64,000 bases of DNA from a virus (IMGVR_UViG_3300029720_000461), one strand, 5' to 3'. Shown: positions 7,319 through 37,275, counted from the stretch's first letter. The notes: generated by a model from the sequence alone, not told the origin. Numbers and translations: made by a program.

Positions 7319-7440
7319 CTTTAAGGATATAACACTTGATATATCTGACAGTACTTAAAGATATTAAAAAGTGTATCGTGAAAGCGAAAGGGAAAATGTG
7401 CAAATAAGACCCTTATACGATTGCAATATATCCTTAATAA

Positions 7441-7511: not shown

Positions 7512-7545
7512 TTATACATATTAAATATTTATAAGGAGCTTTGAT

Positions 7546-7638: not shown

Positions 7639-7814
7639 GTAAACTTAAAAAGCATTGTATAGGACATATATTAATGTCTTATATGATGCTTTTTATTATG
7701 CTGTTAAAACACAAATCTTTTTGTTTTAAATTATATAAAAAAGCTTTTTTATATAAATTGTGATTTCTGACATTGATACAATATACAAAAAGATAATTAA
7801 AGGAAGTTAAAAAT

Positions 7815-8225
7815 ATGGAAATAACAATCAGTTGTACTAAGAAGCAGGCATTGCTTATACAGGAAGCAATGGAAGAATATTTTAAAATAAGACTTAACCA
7901 GTTTGACACACTTGCCAATGCACTTGCGTTTGACGGATACGAAAAGTGTGAGCAGGGCTTTGGAAGGCGTGTGGAAGTAAGACAACAGTTAGATAAGGTA
8001 TTTAAGGAAGCCGGAGAACTTCATATGAAAGCAACCGGTGAAGATGCATGTCCTAAAGGCTCTGTAGCTGTGAAATCTGATAACTGCATGGATATGATTA
8101 ATATATATAATGCGTTAAGAATTGCTTTAATTAAAGCTTCTAAGCCTGTAGGAAAGCCGGAAGAAGCTGTAACACTTGAAGACCTTGGCATACCGGTTAT
8201 TTTAGTCAGGAGTGCTGAGTATTGA
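7815..8225 (+). CDS. hypothetical protein
   Basis: 136-aa ORF. Confidence 0.5.
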   Translation: MEITISCTKKQALLIQEAMEEYFKIRLNQFDTLANALAFDGYEKCEQGFGRRVEVRQQLDKVFKEAGELHMKATGEDACPKGSVAVKSDNCMDMINIYNALRIALIKASKPVGKPEEAVTLEDLGIPVILVRSAEY

Positions 8226-8246
8226 GTATCAAGTTAGGAGTTGTTT

Positions 8247-8819
8247 ATGAGCGATATAAATGGTGTAAGTATAAAAAAGCTTACCATAAGCAGGGAAACA
8301 AATGAAGAAAAGAACAAAACTTATTTAACTGTAGCAGCAAGCATATATCTGTCAGGTAAAAAGCTTGGAAACTGGGAATATAAAAGCATATCTACAGGCG
8401 TGGAAAGCAGCAATTTTGATTTCGACTATAAGCTTTTAGAAGAAGCCGCCATGTCACATAAGGTTAAATACAGACCTTTTAAATCGCATGAATTTGAAGA
8501 TTTTGAAGAGAAAGATGTAACGGAGCTTTTAAAACATGTAGCAGACCTTACAATACAGGAAAATAAGTTTAATGAATATATCAAAGCCGGATATAAGGGT
8601 ATGTTAGATTTTACAAATGACAAGTACCATTTTTATGAGCCTTTAATGTATGGAGATGCTAAAGAATTTATGCGGCTTAATCCGGGCAAAGTAGCTCATT
8701 GTAAAAAATATTGTGGAGATAATATGCGTGTAGATACATATACGGATGTAAAACAGTTCAGCCTGCATCTAAAAGAAAAAAGCAGACAGTACAGTTTATT
8801 TGATTATATGATTATTTAA
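8247..8819 (+). CDS. hypothetical protein
   Basis: The listed ORF begins at a TTG; ATG at 8247 (MSDINGV) with AGGAG RBS. Confidence 0.5.
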   Translation: MSDINGVSIKKLTISRETNEEKNKTYLTVAASIYLSGKKLGNWEYKSISTGVESSNFDFDYKLLEEAAMSHKVKYRPFKSHEFEDFEEKDVTELLKHVADLTIQENKFNEYIKAGYKGMLDFTNDKYHFYEPLMYGDAKEFMRLNPGKVAHCKKYCGDNMRVDTYTDVKQFSLHLKEKSRQYSLFDYMII

Positions 8820-8838
8820 AAAAAGGATGTGAAGCAGT

Positions 8839-9159
8839 ATGAGTATATTTAATAAAAAGAAGGATAAAAAAACTGAAACAAATGAACTTGAGAATATACT
8901 TATTGAAATGACTTCACAGCTTAAAAGCTTAAGAGAAGATGTGGGAAAATTACAAAGCTTTGAAAAACGTATAACAGAGCTGGAAGTAAAATATACGGAG
9001 CTTAATCAGGAAATGTTAGACCGGTATGATTCATTAACAGAAAACATTAAAAGAACAGACGGTAGAAGAAGAATACATTCATCAGAACAGGAAAATGACG
9101 GACTGTTTAACAGCTTTGATTATGAGCAGATGAGAGCAAGATTAAGGAATAAGAAATAA
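8839..9159 (+). CDS. hypothetical coiled-coil protein
   Basis: 106-aa ORF, heptad-like charged sequence. Confidence 0.45.
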   Translation: MSIFNKKKDKKTETNELENILIEMTSQLKSLREDVGKLQSFEKRITELEVKYTELNQEMLDRYDSLTENIKRTDGRRRIHSSEQENDGLFNSFDYEQMRARLRNKK

Positions 9160-9190
9160 CATAAAATAATAAATAAATAACATATAAATG

Positions 9191-9219
9191 TTGACATTGA
9201 ACAAAAAGTATGTTATTAT
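9191..9219 (+). promoter_or_regulatory. sigma70-type promoter (TTGACA-17-TATTAT), copy 2, ahead of tRNA island
   Basis: Near-identical to the 6383 element: ttgacattgaacaaa...tattat. Confidence 0.45.
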
Positions 9220-9339
9220 ATAAGAGAAGTAAGAGAGTACATAATTAAAACAATATGGACAAAATGAACCGAAACTCCCTCCACCGGTTCAGCTTCCAAA
9301 TTATTTATGGATAAAGTTAATTGCCAAATTTTATCCATA

Positions 9340-9447
9340 CGGGATAAAACTTAAATTTAATTTTCTTTCAGAAATTAAATCGGTAAGTATAAACACTGGA
9401 CAAATAGTATGCTGTCCTATGTACAGGTTCGATTCCTGATATCCCGT
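9340..9447 (+). other. tRNA-like element of aberrant length
   Basis: Perfect 7-bp acceptor-like pairing cgggata/tatcccg and T arm (a)cagg-ttcgatt-cctg(a), but about 107 nt and no canonical D arm. Confidence 0.2.
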
Positions 9448-9779
9448 TTAGCTGCTTTTGCAGCAAATATTTCTTATTAAGTATTTATAAGATTATTGGA
9501 TATATAAAAAAAGGATATTGGTTGAATATATATTCAGTTGTCTTACTAACCAAATAAAAATCTGGTAAGGCACTCCTTTTTAAGTTTAGCTATAGTAGGT
9601 AAAATTTGATGTAATTCTTATGGCTAGTGTGGTGTGGTTAAAGTACCGTTCGATTCGGTTGTCAAACATCAAGAGTTAAGTTAAACCACATTAATGACTT
9701 AACTGCTATAGCTAAATGTACATTCTGACTTAAGTAATATATCAAGTATATTATTATACTTTTGACCTGCCGCCCATTT

Positions 9780-9852
9780 GGTTCTTTAGCTCAGTTGGTA
9801 GAGCATCCGGCTCATAACCGGAAAGTCTTAGGTTCGAGTCCTAGAAGAACCA
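9780..9852 (+). tRNA. tRNA-Met/fMet/Ile2 (CAT)
   Basis: Acceptor ggttctt/aagaacc; D arm tagctcagttggtagagca; anticodon arm tccgg-ctcataa-ccgga; T arm ttagg-ttcgagt-cctag. Confidence 0.8.
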
Positions 9853-10010
9853 CTGCTATATAGCTTTGGCACGAATAAGTTATATGGCACTGTTGTTTGA
9901 CTTTTTTTGTCATGTTTGAAATACAGATATTAGAAAGAACATTTTGCTGGGTGTATCTGTATTATTCTACTAGCAAATGAAAGTGTTCGGTAGAATCTTC
10001 TTTCTTTTAT

Positions 10011-10084
10011 TGGAATGTGGTCTAATTTGGTAAGGCGCTTGATTTGGGTTCAAGAAATTGTCGGTTCAAATCTGGTCATTCCAA
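10011..10084 (+). tRNA. tRNA-Pro(TGG)
   Basis: Acceptor tggaatg/cattcca (perfect); anticodon arm cttga-tttgggt-tcaag; T stem relies on G-U pairs. Confidence 0.65.
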
Positions 10085-10185
10085 CTAAAGCTTGTCACTT
10101 ATTAAATGCAAATAATACCTTTAAAAGGGAGAATAAAACTATGAGTGATGGATATGGATTGCTATTTTAATTAAGGAGACATGTT

Positions 10186-10518
10186 ATGCAAAAATTATCA
10201 AGAAATTTAGAGCAATTAAAAAATTCAGTAAATAGTTCTAAAAACCGAAATATACGATTTGTTAATGTTAAAGCTGTTAGGCAGTGTAAATATTGTGGAA
10301 GTATAATTGGTGTAGGTGATACTTGTCTTACTGTAAATAAGAAGAAAGAAGGCAGAAGATGGGTTTGTTTATCTTGTGCAAATGCTATTTTAGGATATAA
10401 GGAAACTAAAGTACAAATGAACTGTGTTCCATTTGGAGATGAAGGTGCTTACATGGCTTTATGTGATTTTGCAGCCGAGCAAGAAGCAGAATTATATGAC
10501 AGAGGTATTTTGTATTGA
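10186..10518 (+). CDS. hypothetical zinc-ribbon protein
   Basis: CKYCGS...CLSC Cys pairs; 110 aa. Confidence 0.5.
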   Translation: MQKLSRNLEQLKNSVNSSKNRNIRFVNVKAVRQCKYCGSIIGVGDTCLTVNKKKEGRRWVCLSCANAILGYKETKVQMNCVPFGDEGAYMALCDFAAEQEAELYDRGILY

Positions 10519-10523
10519 AGATT

Positions 10524-10621
10524 TGGTTAGATGACATTAGACCAGCACCAGAAGATTATGTGCAGTGTAAATATCTTCTTTGTTAATCTGTGTGTTGTGG
10601 GTTCGAGTCCCACTTAGCCAG
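10524..10621 (+). other. tRNA-like element / tRNA 3'-end fragment (possible att core or pseudogene)
   Basis: T arm gtggg-ttcgagt-cccac followed by ttagcca, which pairs with tggttag 90 nt upstream; no canonical D or anticodon arm. Confidence 0.2.
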
Positions 10622-10698
10622 CTTGTTGTTCTTTTTAAGAATGATATTATTCATTATCGTATCAGTAATGAGCGTAGTAAAAATAACAAGAAGGAGTA

Positions 10699-11001
10699 AT
10701 GATTATGAGTAATTGTGGTCTTGTTGTAAATAAAAACGATATTAACACATACTTTCAAAGTTTTATTAAACCTAGAATTTTTGACGCTGAATGGCATATA
10801 AGCTTAGCGTCAGATTTTCTTAATATAATTGATAAAGATGAATTTAAGTTAGATGATTTATGTAATCCTAAATACATAAAAGATGTTCTTAATGATAATA
10901 AAGATAATGAATACACTAAAGCTGTCCTCTATAGAAAAAATCCTGAAATGTATATATCGGGAATATTTAGATTGTATGATTTATACTTAAAGAGCAAATA
11001 A
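10699..11001 (+). CDS. hypothetical protein (paralog of 12829..13131)
   Basis: Shared motif D..FHI.LA..FL..ID.DE ... PE.YIS..F with the 12829 ORF. Confidence 0.5.
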   Translation: MIMSNCGLVVNKNDINTYFQSFIKPRIFDAEWHISLASDFLNIIDKDEFKLDDLCNPKYIKDVLNDNKDNEYTKAVLYRKNPEMYISGIFRLYDLYLKSK

Positions 11002-11092
11002 TCAAGGATGACGGTTACGGATTAGTATTTTAATAATAAAGGAGAGTGGTTTGTATGTTTAGTGATTTTAGAAATTCAATAGGAGTATAAAA

Positions 11093-11165
11093 GGATTGTA
11101 AGCTAACTCGGTAGAAGCGTCTGTCTGAAGAACAGAAGGAATTGGTTCGACACCAATACAATCCA
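11093..11165 (+). tRNA. tRNA-Phe(GAA)
   Basis: Acceptor ggattgt/acaatcc; anticodon arm tctgt-ctgaaga-acaga; T arm attgg-ttcgaca-ccaat; overlaps and invalidates the minus ORF 11030..11224. Confidence 0.8.
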
Positions 11166-11284
11166 TTAGCACTGCTGAAGTGGTTGTAAATGTAATTGTC
11201 TGAGTTCTTTACAATCAGGTGCAAAACAAAATCAGATATATCAGACTATTTCTTCAGCAATATATATCTGATTATATTAAATAA

Positions 11285-11813
11285 TGCGGGATAGAGCAGT
11301 TGGAAGCTCGCAAATGTATTATTTAAGTAAAGGAGAGGTATGTTTCATGGATTCTCCAAAAAATATGGGAAACAAAGCAGAGATAGTTGTTATATCAGAA
11401 TTTATTAAAAATGATATACCTGTTTCAATTCCTTTTGGACAAAATGAACCATATGATTTAGTAATTGATACAAAATATGGATTTAAGTCTGTTCAAGTAA
11501 AACATGGAACTTATAGAAATGGTTGCGTTGTTGTAGATATAAGACATCGAATAGGATATTCTAAAATAGAATATAGTACATATGATGGCAAAGCTGATTA
11601 TATCGCAATATGGTGCGAAGAATTAAATACTTGCTATTTATTAGATATTAAAGAATGTAATGGAAAAACCAATCTTAGATTAAGAATTGATAATCCTAAA
11701 AATAATTCTTGCATTTCAACTATAGTTTGGGCTAAAGATTATGAATTTTCTAATAAAGTTCTTTTACTAAAATAATACATTTGAGGTCACAGGTTCAAGT
11801 CCTGTTCCCGCTA
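11285..11813 (+). tRNA. interrupted tRNA gene (5' half 11285-11315, 3' half 11779-11813) split in the anticodon loop by a 463-bp ORF-bearing insertion
   Basis: 5' half has canonical geometry: acceptor tgcggga, U8A9, D arm gagc-agttggaa-gctc, G26, anticodon-stem strand caaat. 3' half: atttg, variable aggtc, T arm acagg-ttcaagt-cctgt, acceptor tcccgct. The two anticodon-stem strands extend into a perfect 12-bp helix caaatgtattat/ataatacatttg. Confidence 0.5.
11347..11775 (+). CDS. PD-(D/E)XK-like nuclease (Hjc/endonuclease-like) encoded inside the tRNA insertion
   Basis: Motifs EPYDLVID ... KSVQVKHG (PD...(D/E)XK spacing); AGGAGAGG RBS 8 nt upstream; fills almost the whole insertion. Confidence 0.45.
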   Translation: MDSPKNMGNKAEIVVISEFIKNDIPVSIPFGQNEPYDLVIDTKYGFKSVQVKHGTYRNGCVVVDIRHRIGYSKIEYSTYDGKADYIAIWCEELNTCYLLDIKECNGKTNLRLRIDNPKNNSCISTIVWAKDYEFSNKVLLLK

Positions 11814-11859
11814 CTGGTTGTTCCCCGACAGCCTATTTAGATTAAATATAAACACTCGT

Positions 11860-11933
11860 TCTGATTTAGTTTAATGGTAAAACACCTGTAGTCAAATACG
11901 GGAGATTAAGGGTTCGATTCCTTTAAGTCAGAA
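11860..11933 (+). tRNA. tRNA (paralog of tRNA-Thr at 7441) with 8-nt anticodon loop; identity uncertain
   Basis: Acceptor tctgatt/agtcaga and D arm near-identical to 7441; the best anticodon arm cctgt-agtcaaat-acggg has an 8-nt loop; one extra nt between T stem and acceptor. Confidence 0.4.
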
Positions 11934-11939
11934 TCGGTG

Positions 11940-12830
11940 ATGTCGGTATTATTATTGAGAAGTTGCTTGCAATAGTCAGTAATAGTATTGGATAAGCCGT
12001 AATAAAAAAATAACAGATACCCTAGTGAAGAAGGGCTGTCACCCTGCTAGGACATTCTTAGAGTAGTCTGTATTAAGAAGGATACCTTTTAATATAGGAT
12101 TTAAGTGACATTATAATTGATAAGTCCACTACTTATTAAGAAGATGGAGCTTGAAGGTTACGGAAAGTACCAATAGTTAGGAATGGTGTATCTATACAGT
12201 TTAATATAATGCCGCAACAGTGTGGGGAGAGCAATAGACGCTTGAGAAGAGAAGAACCTTAAGTCTTAGTCTTGTGGTGGGATTGAGCAGCTTAAGGAAT
12301 ACCAAACAATCTCCTTCGCTATGATGTTGTAGAAATACAACTATAACACACAGCAGCGGACAAGTAGCCCATAGGCGTGAAATGAGAAATTGGATGAATT
12401 AAACCAATATAAAATTCTGAATGATGGGTGAAAGTTGCAGGTAGAAAATCCTGTCATAGCATTGGGGAGAAATCCTGTGGTAAGAAGTTTAGAGGTCGCT
12501 CCTTTAAGCTCAGACTTATCATCTATGTAGCATAATAATAGCGGACTGTATAGGATAAGGCGAAAGCCTATCTGTTTTTATAATATTAGTCCTTTTGATT
12601 TAGGTTCTAGTTCCGTAAGGAGTATGGGTTCGACTCCCATAGAGGGCATTCACCTTAGCTCAATTACAATAAGTCTTAATAAGTAGCTATGATGACGATT
12701 ATACTGAAAATTTAGAATAGTTGTATACCTTTTGGGTGATTGACTATAGCGGTATCCATTTGTAGAGCAACCCCTTGTTGCGGGGTAGTATTCGGTAGAA
12801 GTCCGAGGGTGATTTATAAGGAGAAAATAT
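11940..12830 (+). ncRNA. candidate large structured non-coding RNA (GC-enriched, ORF-free block beside tRNAs)
   Basis: About 890 nt with no ORF of 60 aa or more on the gene strand, visibly higher GC than flanks, many GNRA-like and paired segments, a tRNA-like T arm plus acceptor-like 3' end (atggg-ttcgact-cccat agagggc) at 12615-12647. Confidence 0.25.
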
Positions 12831-13131
12831 GAAACTAACAAAGAAACAAATAATTGAATATATGAATAAATATATTCGAGGGTATTTATATGATGCTGAT
12901 TTTCACATATGTTTAGCAACAGAGTTTTTGAAATTGATTGACTGTGATGAAGTTGATATTGTTGAATATCAGAATATACCGTTAATTTTGCAGGTTATAT
13001 CTGAGCATAGTGAGACAGAAACCGCAAAATCTATTCTATGTCGCAAAACGCCTGAGTTGTATATTTCAGCATTGTTTGCAACATTAGAAAGACGTATCAA
13101 TGAGTATATTAATATGACGAAAACAGTATGA
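12829..13131 (+). CDS. hypothetical protein (paralog of 10699..11001)
   Basis: AAGGAGAA RBS; shared motifs with the 10699 ORF. Confidence 0.5.
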   Translation: MKLTKKQIIEYMNKYIRGYLYDADFHICLATEFLKLIDCDEVDIVEYQNIPLILQVISEHSETETAKSILCRKTPELYISALFATLERRINEYINMTKTV

Positions 13132-13178
13132 GTAAATCCTATAAAAACCCGGATATACATTAGAATTAAGTATTATTT

Positions 13179-13251
13179 GTGTCACTAGCTCAGTTGGTAG
13201 AGCATACGACTTTTAATCGTAGGGTCACGGGTTCAAATCCCGTGTGACACA
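13179..13251 (+). tRNA. tRNA-Lys(TTT)
   Basis: Acceptor gtgtcac/gtgacac; D arm gctcagttggtagagc; anticodon arm tacga-cttttaa-tcgta; T arm acggg-ttcaaat-cccgt. Confidence 0.8.
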
Positions 13252-13494
13252 CTTAATCCGGTACAGGATGCAGATTATAAAAGCAGAATTGTATTGGATA
13301 TCAGTGGAAATCTGAATTATTAAGTGCAATATGTAATGGGACAACGTATTGTATGATAGCTGTGATAATCAGTATTTGCGAACAAAGAACGATGGGAAAA
13401 ACATGTCAGCAGGTGCAGGGTAAGTGTGCATAGCTTATCACAGAGGTTTCGATACCAAAGGGCATGTTTTCGTTCATTCCCGAAAGGAGAAGAT

Positions 13495-16825: not shown

Positions 16826-18712
16826 ATGGATAAACAAAAATTTACTTATAAAGTATATGATGCTAAAACAAGAAGCTTCATATATGAAGAGGATTTCACA
16901 AGTGATAATCCTTTTAAAGATATAGCAGAACGGATGAGTAAAGAAGACATATCACATGGGAGTCTTTATATCGTGGCAGAAAATGAAAACGGACAGGAAG
17001 CTGCATATACGATTGTAAAGAAAAGTGGTACAAAATTCGTTAAGTATGAACATTGTGATTTTCCTTTATCATATATAGATTTTGATATTGAGCCAAGATA
17101 TCTTACATGTATTGATGAAGTGTATAACCACTATAAGTATTATGAGATAACCTTTGATAAGGATAATTTAAGGACAAATGTAAGATATGGACGTATAGGT
17201 GCTGATAAGAATGATACATTTGGTGAGCGTGAATATGATTATCCTTTATCTATGTACTGGGTTAAATATTATGAGAAATTGTCAAAAGGCTATGAAGATA
17301 AAAGTGAACTTAAGGATTTTGATAACAGGCAGAAAAAAGGAACTGAATATGAACCTGTTAAGGATAAATACTCAAAATCACTTATTGAGTTCCTTATAAG
17401 AAAGCAGAAAGACTATGTTGAAAGTAATTATTCAACCGGTGCAGCATTTTCAATGGAAGCTGTAAAAAAATCTGAAAAGATACTGGAAGAGTTAAAGGCA
17501 TATGCTGATTCATCATTTTCAAATAAACAGTTTAAAATAAGAGAACTCTTTAAGGAGCTTGTAACAATATTGCCAAGAAGAATTGCAGATGTATCAAACT
17601 ATCTTAATTATATAACAGGTTTAAGTTCTGAAGCTTTAATGGAACATATTGAACAGGAAGAAGACCTGCTTAATAACTTTAAGGACTTATATGTTAAAAA
17701 AGAAAATGAAGCTGAAGAGAAAGCTGATAATAAAGACATACTTGAAGCTAATAATTTAACAGCCACATGTACGGATTATAAAGACATACATATGATAGAA
17801 GATAAGCTTGATAAAGATATGGCGGCAATGAAGACAGTATTAGCTGTTAAAAATAAATATACTAATGACCGTTACATAGCATGTAAAAAAGAAAAAGGCA
17901 TTGAGAACAGGGGATGTCATTTATTATGGCACGGAAGCCGTACAGAAAACTGGTGGAGTATATTTAAGAATGGTTTAACACTTAATAATAACGCAATAGT
18001 AACAGGAAAGATGTTCGGACAGGGATTATACTTTGCTCCTAAAGCTGAAAAGAGTATGAATTATACATCAAGTTTAGGAAGCTATTGGACAGGCGGTAAT
18101 GATAAAACTGGCTTTATGGCGTTATATGCAGTTGCTATGGGTAAACCTTATGAAATTGACCATGCACTTAGTTCATATTTTACTGAAAAGGATTTAAAGC
18201 ATGGCTGTCATTCAGTATGGGGAAAAGCAGGAAGACATTTAAGAAATGATGAATGCATTATTTATGATGAAAGACAGTGTGACATTAAGTTTTTGCTTGA
18301 GGTTGACAGGGAAAGAGAAAAGTATCTTACACCTGAATTTATAAAAGCTGCAAGGAATATAAAACTCAATCAGTTAAAAGCAGATAAAAACGGATTAAGA
18401 GCTTATATGAGCTTAAGAACTCCTGACAGTACTTTTAGCAGACTGAATATGGATAAAAATAATAAAGTCGAATTTATTTATACTTATGATAACACACTTA
18501 CAATCAAGACATATGATAAGGAACTTAAATCAAGTGAAAAGGAACTTAAATTTAATTCATATCAGACTGATTATCTTAAAATGATGTTTAAAGAAAATTT
18601 CACTTCTAATGACAGGGAATTTGATATGTTACTTGAAGAAAAACAGAAGGAAGTACAAAAGCCAAAGACTAAAGTAAAAAAGAAAGAAATTGAAATGTCT
18701 CTGCTTGCATAA
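16826..18712 (+). CDS. WGR-like + PARP-catalytic-domain ADP-ribosyltransferase
   Basis: N-terminal YYEITFDKDNL...VRYGRIGAD (WGR-like); catalytic H-Y-E signature: LLWHGSRTENWWSIFKNGL, GQGLYFAPKAEKSMNYTS, NDECIIYDERQCDIKFLLEV (cf. PARP1 HGS / GIYFA / NEYIVYD). Confidence 0.75.
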   Translation: MDKQKFTYKVYDAKTRSFIYEEDFTSDNPFKDIAERMSKEDISHGSLYIVAENENGQEAAYTIVKKSGTKFVKYEHCDFPLSYIDFDIEPRYLTCIDEVYNHYKYYEITFDKDNLRTNVRYGRIGADKNDTFGEREYDYPLSMYWVKYYEKLSKGYEDKSELKDFDNRQKKGTEYEPVKDKYSKSLIEFLIRKQKDYVESNYSTGAAFSMEAVKKSEKILEELKAYADSSFSNKQFKIRELFKELVTILPRRIADVSNYLNYITGLSSEALMEHIEQEEDLLNNFKDLYVKKENEAEEKADNKDILEANNLTATCTDYKDIHMIEDKLDKDMAAMKTVLAVKNKYTNDRYIACKKEKGIENRGCHLLWHGSRTENWWSIFKNGLTLNNNAIVTGKMFGQGLYFAPKAEKSMNYTSSLGSYWTGGNDKTGFMALYAVAMGKPYEIDHALSSYFTEKDLKHGCHSVWGKAGRHLRNDECIIYDERQCDIKFLLEVDREREKYLTPEFIKAARNIKLNQLKADKNGLRAYMSLRTPDSTFSRLNMDKNNKVEFIYTYDNTLTIKTYDKELKSSEKELKFNSYQTDYLKMMFKENFTSNDREFDMLLEEKQKEVQKPKTKVKKKEIEMSLLA

Positions 18713-18735: not shown

Positions 18736-18868
18736 ATGTCTTATTACATAAGCCATATCTTATTACATAAGCCATGTAAGACGTTGGTAAAGCTGTGCCA
18801 GTTTTGCTTATTAGAGTAATGCATACTTCGTAGACATTACTCTAATAAGCAAAACTTAGAATCACTAT
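18736..18868 (+). repeat. intergenic repeat block: 18-nt tandem direct repeat x2 and 16-bp inverted repeat around tacttcgtag motif
   Basis: tcttattacataagccat x2; gcttattagagtaatg / cattactctaataagc flanking catacttcgtagaca. Confidence 0.6.
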
Positions 18869-18955: not shown

Positions 18956-19711
18956 ATGAAGTATACAAATAAAGATTTTAAATGGGATTTTAGCAGTATT
19001 GACCCAGAATGTTTATACAGTGAATACAAGAAAGTAAGAATAGGTATTGAAGGAGTATATGCTAATGGAACAGGATATCTGGTTGATAAAACTGCATTTG
19101 AAAGAGAGTTATATCCAGAACTTGCAATAGCCGGATATCTGGTTAATTTTTCAAGAACTTATGGTGTCTGTGATGAATTAAGGCTTGTAAGTAAAGACAG
19201 TTTAAGAAATAATATACGTCTTAATCCTGAAGCATTATTTAATGTGTATATGCATCCAGAAGAATTTACAGGATATATGAAAGATAGTGATGTTGAAGAA
19301 ATCACTGAAATTTTAAAGAAAAACAGCTTTGTTAAAGATGTAGAAGTCACATATAAAAAGCCGGTACTTAATCTTACAAATAATGAATATGAAAAGGTCA
19401 TAAGAGATAATTTCACAAATATCTGTAAATATATAGCACATTTAAAGGAATTAAAATATTCAAATATAGATGCAGCATTTGAATTTGCAAGAAATTATGG
19501 CAATATAACATTGGAAGACCCTAAGACTGTTCTTAGCAGTGATACTGTAGAAATAAGGTATATAACAGACTTTTTGAAAAACTTAAAGAGTTTAAATGTA
19601 ACTATGGAAGATATTTTAAAAAGGTCAGAGGAAAACAGAAATCTGGCAATTTTAGATAGAAATTTACAGAAAGAATATGAAAAGAGAAGAAAAAATGAAA
19701 GGGAGAGATAG
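18956..19711 (+). CDS. hypothetical protein
   Basis: 251-aa ORF, AAGGAGAAAG RBS, ends ...KNERER. Confidence 0.5.
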   Translation: MKYTNKDFKWDFSSIDPECLYSEYKKVRIGIEGVYANGTGYLVDKTAFERELYPELAIAGYLVNFSRTYGVCDELRLVSKDSLRNNIRLNPEALFNVYMHPEEFTGYMKDSDVEEITEILKKNSFVKDVEVTYKKPVLNLTNNEYEKVIRDNFTNICKYIAHLKELKYSNIDAAFEFARNYGNITLEDPKTVLSSDTVEIRYITDFLKNLKSLNVTMEDILKRSEENRNLAILDRNLQKEYEKRRKNERER

Positions 19712-19713
19712 TT

Positions 19714-21057
19714 ATGTTAATTGATACAAAGAGATTTGATGATTTTTTAAGAAAGCATAGCTGCCACATAATAAACGAAGAGAAGACCTTGGAAGATAAG
19801 GTAACTTATCCGGATTTTACCACAAACAGATATGAGAGTGTATTTAAGCAGTTACAGACTGATATTGAAGTTGAAAAAGCTTATGATGCACTTGAGGATG
19901 TATTGTTTGCTGAAGATGAAGACGGAAGGCTTGTACTTAACAGCCCGTATGAATTTATTGCAGGCGGCAGGACATATTCATACGAAGCAGGTACACCGCA
20001 GGAAACAATCTGGGAAGACATGTTTAAGCTTCACAGCAAGGGAGCAGAGTTTACATATAGTACAGAATATGAAGATGTTAATTATGAAACAGCAGAGATA
20101 AATAACAATAAAGAAACTCCTAATATGAATATACTTGATAATCAGGATTTAAAGAAGAAATATGACAGTGGTGAAATAAAAATACCAGATAATATTATGA
20201 CAAAATATATGAATGGAAAAGCTGTATTTGTAATAGATAATGAGGAAGAAAGAGATATATTAGCTTATAATATAGCTAGATTCCCTTATCCCGGAATTAT
20301 TCCTGAATATAATTCAAATAATCCTTACTGGTTTAAAAATAATGATATAGCTTGCAGCAACTTTAAGACAATTCCATTTGAGTTTAAACTTATGCTTTAT
20401 ACAGATTTTTCAGTAATACTTGAACAAAGTAAATATGAGTCAATGTGTTTTGAGAATAAAAAAATAGCTGAATATGGTTATGAATTTAATGATGGCGACC
20501 AAATATGGAGTGATACAGCAGAAATTTATAAGACGGATAACGATAGCCTTTTTATAAAAAAATATGAAGCTGGATATACAAGTGAAGTTAAATATTCTAC
20601 AATAAGTCTCAACAACTTAATAGAAGAAATCCAACAGTATAAGGAAGATGAAGGCAAAAGTAAAAGAGGCGGTTGTTTCATTATAAAAGACCTTCCACAG
20701 GATATTATAAAACCGATACCGGATACAATGCTTGATAAATTTCTTAACAGCGAAGTTGCAATAAAAATATATAACGGAAAACAGCATGATGCGATTATGA
20801 GCCAGCTTAAGGAAACCGGCATTGATTTAAAGCTTGAAGAGTTTGGGGACTATGATAAAGACTATCCTTATTATCATATTGATAAGAATGTGAATAGCAG
20901 TAAAAGAAGTCTTAATGCCTCTATGGATATGCGTCATGTTATTGAAAGTAAAGGTATCAGATGGTGTGTTGATTTTGACAGCTTGGACAGAATCAGAAAA
21001 AACACAGAAGAGAAAGAAAAAACTGTTAAGAAAAATAAAGACCAGTACGAAAGATAA
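19714..21057 (+). CDS. hypothetical protein (QYER-tail family; C-terminal region paralogous to 21921..22614)
   Basis: Translationally coupled to the upstream gene; shared motif YDKDYPYYH/Y.DK; ends KNKDQYER. Confidence 0.5.
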   Translation: MLIDTKRFDDFLRKHSCHIINEEKTLEDKVTYPDFTTNRYESVFKQLQTDIEVEKAYDALEDVLFAEDEDGRLVLNSPYEFIAGGRTYSYEAGTPQETIWEDMFKLHSKGAEFTYSTEYEDVNYETAEINNNKETPNMNILDNQDLKKKYDSGEIKIPDNIMTKYMNGKAVFVIDNEEERDILAYNIARFPYPGIIPEYNSNNPYWFKNNDIACSNFKTIPFEFKLMLYTDFSVILEQSKYESMCFENKKIAEYGYEFNDGDQIWSDTAEIYKTDNDSLFIKKYEAGYTSEVKYSTISLNNLIEEIQQYKEDEGKSKRGGCFIIKDLPQDIIKPIPDTMLDKFLNSEVAIKIYNGKQHDAIMSQLKETGIDLKLEEFGDYDKDYPYYHIDKNVNSSKRSLNASMDMRHVIESKGIRWCVDFDSLDRIRKNTEEKEKTVKKNKDQYER

Positions 21058-21092
21058 TAAAAAATGAAATATTAAAAGGGGGGTAGAGGTTT

Positions 21093-21383
21093 ATGAATCT
21101 AAATAGGAACGAAAGGCAGGACGATACAATGGATTTTGAATGGAAAGTAGAAGACATGGCACTTATGAATGAAAAAGGCAATATATATATTTGCAATGAA
21201 AAAATTTATAAGGCTGAGAATGAATTAACAAGAGAAGAGAAGATTGAATTCCTTGACAGTATGAATGATGGGCTTACAAGCTATATACTTAATCTTGCTG
21301 ATAAACTTAAGGAAGATAAAGCAAATGGAGTTATCAAAAAAGATAAATATGGACAGATGAATACAATATCTTTCGCTGCATGA
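21093..21383 (+). CDS. hypothetical protein (N-terminal-module paralog of 23067..23828)
   Basis: NERQDDTMDFEWKVEDMALMNEKGNIYICNEKIYKAENELTREEKIEFLD close to the 23067 N-terminus. Confidence 0.45.
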   Translation: MNLNRNERQDDTMDFEWKVEDMALMNEKGNIYICNEKIYKAENELTREEKIEFLDSMNDGLTSYILNLADKLKEDKANGVIKKDKYGQMNTISFAA

Positions 21384-21488
21384 ATAAAGAAGAATGACAC
21401 AAGAAATTGTGTTGATAGTACATATGATAGGGGGGAAATTCGTTTTTCTCCATGTAGAAATATAAACAGACTTGATACAAATGTAAGC

Positions 21489-21908
21489 ATGTTTAGAAGC
21501 TCAATATATACAGATTATGTAGACGAAGCATTTCATATAAAGCTTAAAGACTTTGAGAAACAGGAAAGGCAGTATTTTAAGAGCCATGATGAATATGAAA
21601 TATTAAAGACTAAAGTATCTAAATATTCAGATAAATATGGAACTTTCGGACTTAATATCTGGAAAACAAGCAGAGGTTTATATTTCTATAAAAATGATGA
21701 TGCTAACAGTTTAGGAAGACAGATTACACTTGATGAACTTAAATTGTTTTATAGTAAATATGAAGAAATGGATAAGCTTTATGCAAAGATAACTAAAGAG
21801 CTTCCACGCATTGATTATGACCATGAATATATTGCAGAAAAGAGTGAAGAAACCCAGCCAGAAAAGAAGCCACTCCGTAAGAACAGAAATCAGTATGAAA
21901 GAGAATAG
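21489..21908 (+). CDS. hypothetical protein (C-terminal-module paralog of 23067..23828; QYER tail)
   Basis: FHIKLKDFEKQERQYF...NRNQYERE aligns with the 23067 C-terminal half. Confidence 0.45.
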   Translation: MFRSSIYTDYVDEAFHIKLKDFEKQERQYFKSHDEYEILKTKVSKYSDKYGTFGLNIWKTSRGLYFYKNDDANSLGRQITLDELKLFYSKYEEMDKLYAKITKELPRIDYDHEYIAEKSEETQPEKKPLRKNRNQYERE

Positions 21909-21920
21909 AGGTGAAAAGTA

Positions 21921-22614
21921 TATGAGAGAATTTAAAGATTTGACAGATGAAGAAATTAAATATTTTTGTAAGGATGTTTTTGGAGCTTTTAAGTTTGACA
22001 AGATAAAAAGGACTTTTAACGAACATATAGAATGTATTGATGTTAGTTTTTATGCTATAGAAAGTGAACCTAATATATCAGATAGAATTTGTTTACAGAT
22101 AAATGGTCTTAGTTCTAATGACTATAACATTGGAAAAGAAGATACATTATGGCAGCAGTTTCTATATGCAAGAGGAATCTGCTCTTTAGCAATAGATAAT
22201 CCTTATTTAGATATTGATATTAAAAAAGAAAAGAATACAGATAAATTAATACATAATGAAGATGAAAGGACATCTAAAATTATAGATGATTTTTGTAATG
22301 GATTAACTACAATCAGAATAGACTCTCAGAAAGAATTAAATAAATTTATAAAAATGGTAAACACAAAAGTTAATTGTCAGATAGAAGGAACTAATAGATA
22401 TGACAAAGACTATCCATATTATTATGTAGATAAAACCGATACATTAGATGCAGTATGTGATTTTAATTATCTTCTTGCTGGAGATTATCACTGTAATTTA
22501 AAGAATGAGAATATAACAAGATATGTAAAATTTAATACATTAAAAACAAAAGATATAAGTGCTATAAAAAATGAAAATAAGCTGGTGAAGAATAAAACCC
22601 AGTATGAAAGATAA
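21921..22614 (+). CDS. hypothetical protein (QYER-tail family)
   Basis: ATG at 21921 with GAGGTGAAAAG RBS; YDKDYPYYYVDK motif; ends NKTQYER. Confidence 0.5.
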
Positions 22615-22631
22615 CCACATTTACTGGCAGC

Positions 22632-22672
22632 TATGAAGTAACACTCATGGCTGCTTTTTTGTTTAAAGAATC
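22632..22672 (+). terminator. rho-independent terminator
   Basis: gcagctatga...tcatggctgc hairpin followed by TTTTTTG. Confidence 0.55.
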
Positions 22673-23066
22673 AGCTCATAAGGAACTCAGCCGTCTGGCT
22701 TTTATACTGCTTATGTTTACTGACCACTATAAGCTGTTTATCATTCAGAATATTTTTAGTACTTGAAATACTGAAATTAAGATACAGCCCGTGAAGGATA
22801 AAGGAAGAAAGAAAATGAAACGGATACACACCTTATAAGCCTGTTTTTTTAAAAAAAATATCAATGCCATAATAAGACCTTTTTGCAAAAATTTTAAAAC
22901 TATAAACAGATAAAATGATAATAGCTTATGAAGCAGAAAGGGATTACAAATTATGGCAAGTATAGAGGAAAAAGTAGAGAAATGTTATAAAAATAAACTT
23001 GATACACTTAATGTAAGACACTAGATAACAGACATAAAGAACAGGAATGAAAGGCAGGACAATACA

Positions 23067-23828
23067 ATGTTTGAATGGTATGTACAAGTCATGGAGCTGA
23101 TGAATGAGAAAAGCAATATCTATATTGGCAATGAAAAGATTTATAATGCTGAGAATAAATTATCAAGAGAAGAAAAGATTGAATTTCTTGATAAAATGAA
23201 TGATGATAAAATAAGTTATATGTTAAAGCTTGCTGATAAGTTTCAGGAAGACAAAGATAAGCTGTCAAAAGATGAATATGGATTCTATAAAGATGCATCA
23301 TTAAGAGCATGGTTAAAAAAGAATGATTACAGGGAAATTGTTGATACCAGTAAGCCATATATAGGAAGCATTACTCTTGTAGGCTATGATTCTTTTGGTT
23401 GTGGCAGAAGAAACATACAGAATATTAATTTACAGGCTAGAGATGATTGTCGTAAAGATTTTGTAGATGAATTATTTCACAGACAGTTAAAGGAATGTGA
23501 AAAGCAGGAAAAACAGTATTTTGCTGAATATGATGATTATAACATCTTATCAAGAAAAGTATCTAATTATATGTACAAATACAATATATCATTTGGTAAA
23601 GAAATCTGGCAAAGCGGAAACAGATTATTTTTTAAAGACCGTCAGACTGATGATGAAAGAGACCTTACAATGGATGAGCTTAAGGTACTGGAAGCTGCTT
23701 TTGAAAAAATAAAAGGTACTATGGATAAAATAATAAAGTCATTACCTGAAATGGATTATTATAATGAATATAAAGCAGATAAAAGTGATAAACAGATTAA
23801 AAGAAAGCAGCTAGAGCCTGAAAGGTAA
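23067..23828 (+). CDS. hypothetical protein (apparent fusion of the 21093 and 21489 modules)
   Basis: N-terminus matches the 21093 ORF and C-terminus matches the 21489 ORF; ends QLEPER. Confidence 0.5.
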   Translation: MFEWYVQVMELMNEKSNIYIGNEKIYNAENKLSREEKIEFLDKMNDDKISYMLKLADKFQEDKDKLSKDEYGFYKDASLRAWLKKNDYREIVDTSKPYIGSITLVGYDSFGCGRRNIQNINLQARDDCRKDFVDELFHRQLKECEKQEKQYFAEYDDYNILSRKVSNYMYKYNISFGKEIWQSGNRLFFKDRQTDDERDLTMDELKVLEAAFEKIKGTMDKIIKSLPEMDYYNEYKADKSDKQIKRKQLEPER

Positions 23829-23833
23829 CTAAT

Positions 23834-24361
23834 ATGGAAGATAATAAATTTACTGAACAACTATCAGGGCATGATACAACAATAACTGAAGATAAAATGG
23901 CACATTGTAAAGCTGTGGCAGAGCATATGAAGAAGGTTGCCAAGATACAGGGGAAAGATGACCTGACGGCTGATATATATTATGTAGTGGGGCTGCTGCA
24001 TGATATTGGATATCTAAGAGGCAGAAAAGAGCATGAAATAAATGGTGCGGTTATTTTAAAAGCAATGGGAATGAAAGATGAGTATGCACAGGCAATACTT
24101 AATCATGGAACTAATCCATATACTTTAAAGACAAATGAACAGACTGACATATTAATAGCATTGCAGGATGCTGATATGAGTGTAGATAAGTACGGTAGGG
24201 ATGCAGGCTTTAAGAAACGTCTTGAGGATATTAAATTAAGATACGGTGCTGATAGTGAAGCTTATGATACCGCCACCAAAACAGTTCAGTTCCTTAAAGA
24301 AAAATATAATGATGAACAGTCAAAGTCTATGAAAAGATATAGTAATTATGAAAGAATATAA
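23834..24361 (+). CDS. HD-domain phosphohydrolase
   Basis: H...HD motif: HCKAVAEHM ... GLLHDIGY ... NHG; ends YSNYERI. Confidence 0.6.
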   Translation: MEDNKFTEQLSGHDTTITEDKMAHCKAVAEHMKKVAKIQGKDDLTADIYYVVGLLHDIGYLRGRKEHEINGAVILKAMGMKDEYAQAILNHGTNPYTLKTNEQTDILIALQDADMSVDKYGRDAGFKKRLEDIKLRYGADSEAYDTATKTVQFLKEKYNDEQSKSMKRYSNYERI

Positions 24362-24491
24362 TTTTTAAGTGGTGTGATTAATTTCATGCCACTTTTTTAC
24401 TTTACAAATACAATAAAAAAGCTTTATTACAATATTTCCTGATTTTATACCTGTTAAAATTACATTATCAAGCAAATAAGGAGTCCTGATT

Positions 24492-24722
24492 ATGAGAAAT
24501 AATGTAATTGAAATATGGCAGCCAAAATATATGACAGATACATGTTTAATAGCAGCATATAAGGTTAAGGAAGATAATATCATTAAATTTACAAAGGCAA
24601 AGCATTTGGAAGGTATGAAATTTAAAATAAGCGGTAATGATATCCGAAGCTGTGAAATTGTTTCCAATGGTAAGATTGACTGCTATAACGTACCTATGAG
24701 TATGTTGAAGAGAGTGGATTAA
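24492..24722 (+). CDS. hypothetical small protein
   Basis: 76-aa ORF with AAGGAG RBS. Confidence 0.4.
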   Translation: MRNNVIEIWQPKYMTDTCLIAAYKVKEDNIIKFTKAKHLEGMKFKISGNDIRSCEIVSNGKIDCYNVPMSMLKRVD

Positions 24723-25525
24723 TGAGATGCGGAGTATGTGGCACAGTTATACCTTTTACTGATATCCTGTGCCTTAAATTTGGAAAAGTAAAAGACGGGT
24801 GCATCTGCAAATACTGTAAAGAAAAAACAGTAAAGATAATTCCCTTTAATACTTTAAGTTTATATGATGTCAAGCAGCTTATTATTTATAATTTAAGCCT
24901 TAATGAAGAACTAAGCAGAAAACCTTTTAATGCCACATCAGAACTTGGCATGTTAAAACTGGATGAGATTAACAGATATTTAAAAGTGGTTGAAAGCAGA
25001 CATAAAGAAATGGCTGTAAGAATGAAAGATATTACTGATTTAGCACTTGATTTATCAAAGCCAGTGATAAAAGGAAGAAATATATCAGGTGACATAATAT
25101 TTTCAATGAGGCTTAATAATGGTTTAAATATCACTAAAAGGATTAAAACAGGTGTAAGAATAGATTACAGTATCATAGGCAATAAAATCCAATATAATGA
25201 GCCGGGTGAACTTATAGTTATGAAATGTCTTATAAGTCAGGTTTATGAAAATATGTCATCAGAACTAAAGAAAAATATATATGAATATAATGCTTGTAAA
25301 GATATTGAAAATGATTCATTCACCACACAAGGCAGTATAGAACGGATAAAAGCATTAAGCCTTTTTGGACTGGATGATAAATATACCGGTGATGAACTTA
25401 AAAGCAGATACAGATTACTTATGAAAATGTTTCATCCGGACAGTCAGACAATTAATAACAGTATATTAACAGATTATACAGAAAGGATAAATGCAGCTTA
25501 TGAACTGCTGAAAAACAATTTATGA
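24722..25525 (+). CDS. zinc-ribbon + C-terminal J-domain (DnaJ-like) protein
   Basis: CGVCGT...CICKYCKEK; C-terminal LKSRYRLLMKMFHPD (J-domain HPD motif). Confidence 0.55.
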   Translation: MRCGVCGTVIPFTDILCLKFGKVKDGCICKYCKEKTVKIIPFNTLSLYDVKQLIIYNLSLNEELSRKPFNATSELGMLKLDEINRYLKVVESRHKEMAVRMKDITDLALDLSKPVIKGRNISGDIIFSMRLNNGLNITKRIKTGVRIDYSIIGNKIQYNEPGELIVMKCLISQVYENMSSELKKNIYEYNACKDIENDSFTTQGSIERIKALSLFGLDDKYTGDELKSRYRLLMKMFHPDSQTINNSILTDYTERINAAYELLKNNL

Positions 25526-25699
25526 AAAAATATATAACAGGTCTTATTTTAAATATCCTATTAATACTTTTTCCTATAGGTTTATTAACTGCCGGTGTAA
25601 TGACAGGGCAGAATATATTTTATAAATTAGGGATTGTTTCATGCGTGATAGCTTTTATGTTAATGAAACAAATTTATAAAATTGCAAACACACACTCGT

Positions 25700-27140
25700 G
25701 ATTTTAGCCATGACTAAGTGAGCATTTACAAAAAATCAGAATATGCTGAAATATGTATTTAGTGATAAATACATAAAATAAATATGTTTTATTGAATCTC
25801 GATTACATCTTCTATTTTACATTTAAGTTTACAGATGTTTTCAATAGTTTCAAGTGAAATTATTATATTTAAGAAGGAAATGATATTATGGCAGAAAAGG
25901 CTTATAAATATAGAATATATCCAAATAAAAATCAGAAAGAACTTATTGCTAAAACATTTGGATGTTGCAGATTTGTGTATAACTATTATCTTGATAAACG
26001 AATAGAAATGTATGAGAATGATAAGACCACATTTACATATTACATGTGTTCCAAAGATTTGACACAATTGAAGAAAGAATATGAATGGCTTAAAGAACCA
26101 GATAAAGATTCTTTACAAAAGTGTTTAAAAGATTTAGATATGGCATATCAGAAATTTTTTAAGGAACATACTGGTTATCCGAAATTTAAGTCAAAAAAGA
26201 ATAGGTATCAGTCTTATAGAACAAGTTACACAAAAACAACTGCTGGCGGGAATATAATGTTTTTAAATAAACATATAAAACTTCCAAAGTTAGGATTAGT
26301 TAAAATAAGAGATAAACAAGTTCCACAAGGAAGAATATTAAATGCCACAATATCACAAGAACCAAATGGACACTACTACTGTTCTCTATGTTGTACAGAT
26401 GTAGAATTTAAACAGTTGCCAAAAACCAATCAGAATATTGGAATAGATTTAGGGCTAGTGAATTTTGCAATATTATCTGATGGAAAAACAATTGATAACC
26501 TTCATTTTTTTGAAAAATCAGAAAAGAAACTTGCTAAATTACAACGTGAATTATCAAGAAAAGCAATTGGTAGTAATCGTTGGAATAAGGTGAGAATCAA
26601 GGTTGCAAATTTACAGAAACATATTTCTAATCAAAGAAATGATTTCTTACAGAAACTCACAACAGAAATTATAAGAATGTATGATGTAATTGCTATTGAA
26701 GATTTAGATATCAAATCTATGAAAGAAACAGATTCTATCATTCGCAATAAACGAATTGGAGATGTATCTTGGTCTGAATTTCGTAGAATGTTAGAATATA
26801 AGTCTCAATGGTATGGAAAGAAATTATCTGTAATAGACAGATATTATCCTTCTTCACAAATTTGTCATTGTTGTGGTTATAAAGATGGTAGAAAATCAGA
26901 AGATATTCGGTCTTGGGCTTGTCCTAAATGTAATTCAAAATTAGATAGAGACATTAATGCTGCTATAAATATTTTGAATGAAGGATTAAGAGTTATAAAT
27001 GTTTAAATAGTATATAAGAACCGTAGGAACTACGGGGATAGCTCGGTGATACTTAACTCAATAGAGTTATTGACCGAGAATCATGTGACTTTAATCATGT
27101 GAGGTTCAAAAGCATACATTAAATTATGCTGAAGAAAAAA
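25700..27140 (+). mobile_element. IS200/IS605-family element carrying solo tnpB (no tnpA); boundaries approximate
   Basis: tnpB with hairpin-rich flanks; no Y1 transposase ORF adjacent. Confidence 0.4.
25888..27006 (+). CDS. tnpB: TnpB (IS200/IS605-family OrfB, RuvC-like RNA-guided nuclease)
   Basis: OrfB N-terminus YKYRIYPNKNQ; RuvC-I GIDLGL; C-terminal zinc finger CHCCGY...CPKCNSKLDRDINAAINI. Confidence 0.85.
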   Translation: MAEKAYKYRIYPNKNQKELIAKTFGCCRFVYNYYLDKRIEMYENDKTTFTYYMCSKDLTQLKKEYEWLKEPDKDSLQKCLKDLDMAYQKFFKEHTGYPKFKSKKNRYQSYRTSYTKTTAGGNIMFLNKHIKLPKLGLVKIRDKQVPQGRILNATISQEPNGHYYCSLCCTDVEFKQLPKTNQNIGIDLGLVNFAILSDGKTIDNLHFFEKSEKKLAKLQRELSRKAIGSNRWNKVRIKVANLQKHISNQRNDFLQKLTTEIIRMYDVIAIEDLDIKSMKETDSIIRNKRIGDVSWSEFRRMLEYKSQWYGKKLSVIDRYYPSSQICHCCGYKDGRKSEDIRSWACPKCNSKLDRDINAAINILNEGLRVINV

Positions 27141-37252: not shown

Positions 37253-37275
37253 TTACAATGGAAGGATTAAATATT

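Follow-up and report, generated by a model that had tools for sequence, protein, structure and literature searches.

A putative C-terminal docking tag on unrelated proteins of an apparently conjugative large element of the human gut

Signals at the C-terminus mark the substrates of type IV secretion systems (T4SS), and conjugative systems also transfer establishment proteins encoded by the plasmid (PMC11288057, PMC8406263). Like the tails described here, T4SS signals are short, unstructured, uncleaved peptides at the C-terminus of otherwise unrelated soluble proteins. They are positively charged in VirB/D4-type systems and Glu-rich in Dot/Icm, whose 'E-block' has position -3 or -4 occupied by a hydrophobic residue; basic and acidic flavours with a hydrophobic position are likewise found here, the charge of the basic ones being ordinary for the window. 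T4SS signals are less sharp, the motif here lying at the extreme C-terminus in the form hydrophobic-E/D-R/L-(D/E). Unlike them, the tails are present on about 46% of the sampled genes of one element and absent from relatives with similar coupling proteins; translocation is here a candidate role only. To our knowledge such a C-terminal signal has not been reported from Gram-positive conjugative elements, and a literature search found no described C-terminal motif of this kind.

Encapsulin cargo-loading peptides and phage capsid-targeting tails such as the C-terminus of the HK97 protease are also short C-terminal peptides borne by unrelated enzymes after a flexible linker. They direct these enzymes to one shell protein, whereas the tails have no GSL-type consensus and none of the ~55 proteins scanned in the window (the whole stretch of 64,000 nucleotides analysed here) matched a capsid, encapsulin or terminase family. 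SSB (DDDIPF) and T7 gp2.5 and gp4 have in common, though non-homologous, a docking peptide at the very C-terminus, made of an acidic run and a hydrophobic residue. In this type the tail is on the hub and ends with an aromatic residue, whereas here it is on the enzymes, its terminal residue is usually charged (R or D), and the window tails are basic. Iyer, Aravind and colleagues reportedly described in 2017 polyvalent proteins of phages and conjugative elements and proposed their delivery with the DNA; these are said to contain the same kinds of counter-defence and nucleic-acid-processing domains and to undergo rampant domain shuffling, but the domains are fused in one giant protein instead of being separate proteins with a common tail. 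Membrane-anchored sorting signals (LPXTG, PEP-CTERM) were rejected because the tails are hydrophilic, with the stop codon directly after them, and ssrA-like degrons (..LAA, a non-polar end) because the tails end with R, D, E or L, following an acidic residue.

The six-tail cluster studied here belongs to what looks like a large conjugative element with a T4SS, found in human-gut metagenomes, rather than like a virus, although IMG/VR classes related elements as viral. A 938-residue VirD4/TraG-type coupling protein (T4SS-DNA_transf, TrwB_AAD_bind and TraG-D_C domains) and PrgI are encoded upstream of the window's first large gene (2457-4160), at most 10 kb away, a position read in a related contig that bears the window's helicase gene. 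Over the 20.8 kb compared, the window and a 294-kb ENA scaffold are 100% identical. DNA and protein similarity searches in annotated plasmids and phages gave no match, and no close relatives of the window's TadA-like ATPase were found in IMG/VR. For the cluster proteins, Pfam and PHROGs yielded the HD domain and one weak match to a PHROG family without known function, nothing more, and a PDB sequence search yielded nothing. The region 18956-24361 consists of two operons of accessory genes (18956-22614 and 23067-24361), with the following features:

18736..18856, plus strand: intergenic control region 5' of the first operon, with repeats found in the sequence
18956..19711, plus strand: gene of a 251-residue protein without family match above threshold, tail ..KNERER (NERER at 19694-19708)
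19714..21057, plus strand: gene of a 447-residue mosaic protein, tail KNKDQYER (21031-21054)
21093..21908, plus strand: family B copy 1, 271 codons with a nonsense codon inside, tail RKNRNQYERE (21876-21905)
21922..22614, plus strand: gene of a 230-residue two-domain protein, tail KNKTQYER (22588-22611)
22626..22655, plus strand: intrinsic terminator at the end of the first operon
23067..23828, plus strand: family B copy 2 (B2), intact, 253 residues, tail KQLEPER (23805-23825)
23834..24361, plus strand: gene of an HD-domain phosphohydrolase of 175 residues, tail ..SNYERI (NYERI at 24344-24358)
24367..24394, plus strand: intrinsic terminator at the end of the second operon

The control region has a 19-nt tandem repeat (18736-18773), in two copies in the window and three in relatives, and a 27-nt inverted repeat spanning 18800-18856, directly 3' of which the relatives have an 83-nt insertion that is missing from the window.

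The six ..ER-type tails claimed in the initial annotation are all present at the expected places, the only amendment being that the ATG of the 230-residue gene is at 21922 and not at 21921. Among the 73 plus-strand ORFs of the window, ER is found within the last three residues of 6/7 consecutive genes (18956-24361) and of 0/~66 others (Fisher p = 4e-8). The enrichment is weak at the level of the whole window-type element, where 8 of 98 genes have a tail against 3.5% expected (p = 0.02), and it is confined to this one cluster. An unusual positive charge of the window tails was rejected, their net charge of +2 to +3 being within about 1 sd of the window mean.

The annotation also took the tailed genes for non-homologous neighbours, which does not apply to four of the six: they belong to one module-sharing superfamily, their products being pieced together from a small number of freely recombining orphan modules. 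For this reason the window holds few independent tails, those that do not serve as a Shine-Dalgarno sequence (SD) amounting to about two events, one in the A/B superfamily and one in the HD gene. The YDKDYPYY motif noticed in 19714-21057 and 21922-22614 was confirmed and is part of a larger C-terminal module of ~100 residues common to both proteins (28% identity over 117 residues, E = 1e-9). A profile of this YPYY module has 12 matches among 1.84 billion representative proteins, all in this group of elements. The protein of 19714-21057 is composed of an N-terminal module, the YPYY module (20728-20988) and the tail, and its two parts are separate genes, coding for 324 and 316 residues, in the related locus L001. 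The protein of 21922-22614 has an NTF2/cystatin-like N-terminal domain followed by a disordered linker, the YPYY module (22261-22545) and the tail. Since the four genes are mosaics of shuffled modules, the three K-N-K/R-x-Q-Y-E-R tails were probably inherited together, deriving from a single linker-plus-tail cassette. Variants of tailed genes with module insertions or deletions still end in a tail. Orthologues of 21922 have ..EQEDIELD or ..LEDYDRD where the window has KNKTQYER; in a 95%-identical one, ending with ..AIKNELEQEDIELD where the window gene ends with ..AIKNENKLVKNKTQYER, QYER is exchanged for DIELD at the same position.

Comparison with related elements establishes the tail as a lineage-specific, protein-level C-terminal motif: a hydrophobic residue, E/D, R/L and an optional D/E, preceded by a disordered linker. 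Not counting tails next to a start codon, 15 of 116 protein families carry it in loci of the lineage and 4 of 619 in control loci (p = 9e-10). In the 244-kb element IMGVR_UViG_3300045988_184161 it is carried by 31 of the 67 genes sampled, against 3.7% expected from the rate at random internal positions (p = 1e-26), and acidic residues make up a fraction of 0.31 over the last 8 positions versus 0.16 in the protein body. Control elements with tail-less homologues of the same family are at background (5.4% observed versus 4.5% expected). The carriers have unrelated folds and include homologues of RtcB, CCA-adding enzyme, RecJ, topoisomerase IA, UvrD, NADAR-RNase T, guanylate kinase, HipA, HD phosphohydrolase and DnaQ-like exonuclease. 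In both AlphaFold models the tails have pLDDT <50. Leu is encoded by TTA, CTT, CTG, TTG and CTA in the ..ELD tails, and Arg in the tails by AGA, AGG and CGC; tail-bearing genes are found on both strands and the SD follows the stop codon in most cases, which places the constraint on the protein and not on the DNA. A DNA-level motif at gene ends was likewise rejected, codon use being free and no similarity being found downstream of the stops. Elements with coupling proteins 57-72% identical have no tail enrichment. The tail is thus not a general trait of coupling-protein-bearing relatives: none was found in coupling-protein neighbourhoods, and control loci are at background. The tail-rich 244-kb contig yielded no coupling protein. 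The window has basic tails and the sister lineage acidic ones, their hydrophobic residue being at -3 or -4 (DDDFDLDL and EEEGIDLD are examples), hence a single receptor is not assured.

The suggestion of a shared tag, made in the initial annotation, is strengthened by these related elements; the sorting, packaging or processing role attached to it is not, and the QYER tails of the window itself are best attributed to shared ancestry. We give about even chances to the hypothesis that the tail is a putative docking tag, shared by unrelated proteins and bringing them to one common partner, possibly the transfer machinery. Selection would maintain the motif, and the tail would act as a short docking peptide recruiting unrelated soluble proteins to this partner. 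The preferred candidate is the element's transfer machinery, i.e. its T4SS coupling protein, which comes into question because it is encoded just upstream of the window; in that case the tail may label those proteins of establishment and counter-defence that are to be delivered with the DNA. A wider proposal is tentative: large (about 150-300 kb) mobile elements of human-gut Firmicutes might use a new C-terminal peptide, borne by as many as about half of their soluble proteins, as an address tag on the scale of the proteome, to steer DNA/RNA-repair and counter-defence enzymes to one receptor, for co-delivery by the T4SS or towards another element-specific compartment, the six genes of the window being a local tagged set.

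Could the peptide be a mere by-product of ER codons (GAR AGR) selected as SD of the downstream gene? This translational coupling accounts for the 18956 and 23067 tails and partly for that of 21489. The codons of NERER in 18956 are gaaagggagaga, with their end 5 nt before ATG 19714, and are the SD of that gene (the junction is gaaagggagaga, then tag tt ATG); EPER of 23067 is encoded by gaaagg, whose end is 8 nt before ATG 23834 and which is the SD of the HD gene (gaaagg, then taa ctaat ATG). The same overlap is found in distant HD homologues with ER tails, where the tail is 2-7 nt before the next ATG and works as SD, and among control elements, junctions of <=12 nt have ER-type endings about four times as often (8/151) as other places (7/595). 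The other three tails do not coincide with the next ribosome-binding site: the 19714 tail is separated from the next start by a 35-nt gap with its own SD downstream of the tail, and an intrinsic terminator comes after that of 21922 and after that of the HD gene. The QYER tail of 21922, with terminator 22626..22655 behind it, is therefore no ribosome-binding site. Moreover, ..ELD, ..DLD and ..YEL tails are not SD-like, and a 25-40-fold enrichment remains at gaps >12 nt to the next start, both for the ER form (16/122 in the lineage, 3/595 in controls) and for the ELD form (14/122 and 2/595, respectively). Coupling is refuted as a complete explanation, for which we see hardly any chance left. A hidden start codon in 'cagtATGAAAGA' was rejected as well: the 19714 tail reads TAC there and no ORF follows.

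It is also conceivable, though unlikely, that the tails are functionless leftovers of history, the cassette having spread with the shuffled modules while the other tails are old ribosome-binding site relics or chance K/E/R-rich matches. The three QYER tails, with their common string of 8-9 residues on one module-shuffling superfamily, fit such hitch-hiking, as does the modest window-wide enrichment. The B2 gene body has 95% DNA identity to the L010 copy in an alignment that ends just before the divergent linker-tail region, suggesting recombination at this junction, and a 51-residue remnant in L001 still ends with ..EPER only because the SD of the HD gene lies there. Yet at least 15 unrelated families, captured housekeeping-type enzymes among them, have the motif with free codons and no DNA similarity near the stops, control elements of the same base composition are without it, and orthologues exchange tail variants at one site instead of losing the tail. 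A docking tag might, with a somewhat lower probability, serve another partner: a replisome/DNA-processing hub, on the model of the SSB, T7 gp2.5 and T7 gp4 tails, or the J-domain protein (24722-25525) and a membrane-anchored SpoVK/CbbX-type AAA+ ATPase, whose genes adjoin the cluster in all window-type loci. The tailed RecJ, topoisomerase IA, UvrD and DnaQ-like enzymes resemble, as a set, the known SSB interactome, and the acidic tails with their hydrophobic residue resemble DDDIPF. However, the tails of the window are not acidic and persist although a TnpB insertion interrupts its AAA+ gene, and the loci L003 and L004, though rich in tails, showed neither a J-protein gene nor an AAA+ gene. 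A stability signal is less probable still. Charged C-termini stabilise bacterial proteins and non-polar ones such as that of ssrA, ending in LAA, destabilise them. The exposed, disordered tails could be a degron that sets when early proteins are turned over, or a charged cap against host proteases reading the C-terminus. The fixed hydrophobic residue at -3 or -4 is not accounted for by a generic charge cap, the motif is unlike any known Firmicute degron, and both its restriction to one lineage and its absence from same-composition controls would be left without a reason.

Should the docking tag that we favour prove to be a genuine address tag, Gram-positive conjugative or phage-like elements would have their first protein-targeting signal defined by sequence. 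It would also give a simple predictor of the proteins sent ahead of or along with a mobile element's DNA, and a portable tag for protein delivery. It would bear on how large gut elements beat recipient defences, since the tagged set includes tRNA-repair, ADP-ribose-processing and nuclease/helicase enzymes. Even with a functionless tail, the locus clearly exemplifies how modules shuffle and paralogues decay in an element that is very common in the human gut.

Within family B, the collinearity of 23067-23828 with two upstream ORFs, proposed from the initial reading, is borne out by pairwise matches of residues 2-81 to 21093-21383 (62% identity, E = 2e-29) and of residues 125-253 to 21489-21908 (42% identity, E = 9e-28). 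It had been left open whether one copy was split or the other fused: copy 1 is the split one, by a single TGG>TGA change and not by evolved fission. The segment 21093-21908 is one reading frame with TGA at 21381-21383, where five related assemblies read TGG (Trp). Copy 1 is intact in L001, L035, L037, L038 and L039; the split allele is found only in L036, a locus 100% identical to the window, and the ATG at 21489 has no SD before it. Because of the single TGA, the missing SD and this restriction to L036, 21093-21908 is a nonsense allele or pseudogene. The assembly frameshift feared within 21383-21489 is absent by comparison with the related assemblies, and a frameshift or assembly error was rejected as cause of the split, the two ORFs being in frame and the break being one G>A substitution. 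Reading of TGA as Trp (genetic code 4) was also rejected because other genes stop at TGA and long ORFs hold under code 11. The intact B2 protein has no known fold; in the assembly collection, 438 indexed blocks contain its exact sequence.

The six C-terminal tails reported in the initial annotation are all present as described, with a sole correction to its list of gene starts: the fifth gene begins at 21922, not 21921. Of 7 consecutive genes, 6 have ER among the final three residues, versus 0 of about 66 other plus-strand ORFs (p = 4e-8). The proposal that such tails are by-products of ribosome-binding sites holds for two of them and fails for three. gaaagggagaga codes for the NERER tail and runs into tag tt ATG, and gaaagg codes for the EPER tail and runs into taa ctaat ATG; both are themselves ribosome-binding sites. 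The SD of gene 21922 (agaggtg; genes are named by start position) adjoins the QYERE tail of 21489. In contrast, 35 nt separate the 19714 tail from the next start, and that start is served by a separate SD; the tails of 21922 and of the HD gene (23834-24361) are followed by intrinsic terminators (22626-22655 and 24367-24394, respectively); none of these three is a ribosome-binding site. The three QYER tails share K-N-K/R-x-Q-Y-E-R with synonymous codon differences (tac/tat, aat/aac), a pattern that fits a linker-plus-tail cassette of common descent in a mosaic superfamily better than recent gene conversion; they were probably inherited together. The tail observation is partly a ribosome-binding site effect and partly shared ancestry, and it also points to an unexplained motif.

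This motif is a hydrophobic residue, E/D, R/L and an optional D/E, placed at the extreme C-terminus after a disordered linker. In sister-element loci the same kind of tail is found on most neighbouring, unrelated proteins (..EEYER, ..DVELD, ..DIELD, ..GIDLD, ..DYEL, ..IEIER, ..DFDLDL, ..NEYDDLEL). Across the lineage R is enriched 4.1-fold at position -1, E 3.2-fold at -2 (25% of proteins) and Y 2.1-fold at -3; the same positional profile is flat in controls, a set of large elements alike in composition, among them many with tail-less homologues of family B (the family of 21093-21908 and 23067-23828). Tails away from a start occur in 15 of 116 lineage families versus 4 of 619 in controls (p = 9e-10). 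When only genes with a gap of over 12 nt to the following start are counted, 16 of 122 have the ER form and 14 of 122 the ELD form in the lineage, against 3 and 2 of 595 in controls. Counts of tailed genes were:

Related 244-kb element IMGVR_UViG_3300045988_184161: 31 of 67, 3.7% expected, p = 1e-26
Window-type element: 8 of 98, 3.5% expected, p = 0.02
Control elements: 43 of 803, 4.5% expected, p = 0.23

Tail Leu codons (TTA, CTT, CTG, TTG, CTA) are spread at least as evenly as genome-wide, Arg is coded by AGA, AGG and CGC, tails are found on both strands, and the sequences 3' of the stops are dissimilar. The constraint therefore acts on the protein. Carriers include homologues of RtcB, CCA-adding enzyme, RecJ, topoisomerase IA, UvrD, NADAR-RNase T, DUF488-SLOG, guanylate kinase, HipA and HD phosphohydrolase. 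Orthologues of 21922 swap tails at the same site (..NKLVKNKTQYER, ..LEQEDIELD, ..LEDYDRD), and variants that gained or lost a module kept a tail. In distant HD homologues, too, ..ER falls in the final one to three positions, though it overlaps the SD of the next gene in the two contexts examined. These data show that the C-terminal motif is real, lineage-specific and at the protein level, on a disordered tail. A literature search for a prior description found no comparable motif.

The YDKDYPYY motif noticed in both 19714 and 21922 indeed belongs to a shared C-terminal module of about 100 residues (E = 1e-9), hereafter the YPYY module. It is an orphan: its profile, run against 1.84 billion representative proteins, gave 12 matches. 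Five modules recur: the 19714 N-terminal part, the YPYY module, the 21922 N-terminal domain and the two halves of family B. Homologous proteins combine family B with the 21922 N-terminal domain (P0016) or with the YPYY module (P0030), and the 19714 N-terminal part with the 21922 C-terminal part (P0056); P0049 has one extra YPYY-like module and P0102 has three. The 447-residue product of 19714-21057 is chimeric relative to related locus L001 (7979-9928): its N-terminal part matches a 324-residue gene there and its C-terminal part the 316-residue gene beside it, as would follow from recombination or a deletion between repeated YPYY modules. Paralogy among the tailed genes, as read from such arrangements, is module shuffling typical of mobile-element accessory regions.

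Collinearity of 23067 with two upstream ORFs was confirmed, at 62% identity over 82 residues with 21093-21383 and 42% over 132 residues with 21489-21908. The copy is split as proposed, by an ordinary nonsense mutation and not by an evolved fission or fusion. Translated in one frame, 21093-21908 is a continuous family-B protein whose sole interruption is a TGA at 21381-21383. In five related assemblies, otherwise identical across a 160-nt stretch, this codon is TGG (Trp) and copy 1 is called intact, with 271 or 260 residues. Family-B homologues in the protein database are mostly single proteins of 220-260 residues, and no Shine-Dalgarno precedes the ATG at 21489. Among the assemblies compared, the split allele is found only in the one matching the window, which also has the TnpB insertion cutting the neighbouring AAA+ gene. 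The fission/fusion part of the finding is ordinary. Decay is reciprocal in L001: there copy 1 is whole, with copy 2 (23067-23828 in the window) down to a 51-residue remnant, which suggests that the two copies are redundant.

G+C content of the window is about 30%, and almost every gene is on the plus strand. Its other features are:

7250-13252, seven tRNA genes
11997-12589, plus strand, full-length ROOL RNA (331.6 bits, E = 1e-75), inside the tRNA cluster
16826-18712, WGR-PARP protein of 628 residues (WGR and PARP catalytic domains), directly upstream of the tail cluster
25888-27006, TnpB, IS605-type
36524-41201 and 45426-53267, TraX, T2SSE/VirB11-like (Tad-like) ATPase, T2SSF-like platform protein, then a 2613-residue surface protein
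Within the window, EAL protein and flotillin-like protein
Within the window, DUF932, lytic transglycosylase, PIF1-like and RecD-like helicases

ARAGORN gives unusual anticodon loops in two tRNA genes (7250-7319, 11860-11933). The WGR-PARP protein is kept in all related loci and ends in ..EIEMSLLA, without the tail motif. TnpB is inserted in the gene of a membrane-anchored SpoVK/CbbX-type AAA+ ATPase (site 25522-27006), leaving only a 59-residue N-terminal remnant (25522-25701); the gene is whole (370 residues) in L001, L035, L038 and L039. A zinc-ribbon and J-domain protein (24722-25525) lies directly upstream. TraX and the ATPase and platform proteins suggest a Tad-like pilus, and the 2613-residue protein, with Listeria-Bacteroides repeats, is probably a mating adhesin.

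Window 13067-33828 is 100% identical to part of a 294-kb human gut scaffold (ENA ERZ28656368, XIEH16-1 scaffold_23), which carries the window's 62350 gene on a second locus. The assembly collection has 438 indexed blocks with the exact 23067 protein; their contigs reach 475 kb, and one measures 1.59 Mb. A related 328-kb contig that has the window's helicase gene (2457-4160) encodes a VirD4/TraG-type coupling protein (938 residues) and PrgI at most 10 kb upstream of that gene. We therefore treat the element as a putative T4SS-bearing conjugative element, megaplasmid or ICE. Contigs of 92-244 kb classed as viral by IMG/VR (L010, L011, L047 and L049, of IMGVR_UViG_3300045988_184161, and also L026-L029, L034 and L050-L057) carry either VirD4-type coupling proteins or cargo such as topoisomerase IA, RecJ and UvrD typical of plasmids and ICEs, and may be conjugative elements, not phages.

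We infer that the tail motif is under selection as a shared docking peptide. The favoured candidate partner would be the transfer apparatus, because the element encodes a coupling protein, because C-terminal signals are typical of T4SS substrates and establishment proteins are co-transferred by conjugative systems (PMC11288057, PMC8406263), and because the tagged enzymes are of a kind that would help once a new cell is reached. However, enrichment is weak in the window-type element, relatives with similar coupling proteins lack tails, the tail-rich 244-kb contig yielded no coupling protein, and window tails are basic versus acidic in the sister lineage. Three rival readings are each less likely: neutral hitch-hiking of the tails; with a somewhat smaller chance, docking to a different hub, SSB-like or formed by the adjacent J-domain and AAA+ proteins; and, with a smaller chance still, a role as stability signal.

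Upstream of the first operon lies one further feature:

18736-18856, 19-nt tandem repeat and 27-nt inverted repeat (93%-complementary)

These repeats may act as an operator or, as single-stranded DNA, in some other regulatory role. The tandem repeat has 2 copies in the window versus 3 in L001 and L040. Just downstream of the inverted repeat, L035 and L001 carry 83 inserted nt that include another hairpin.
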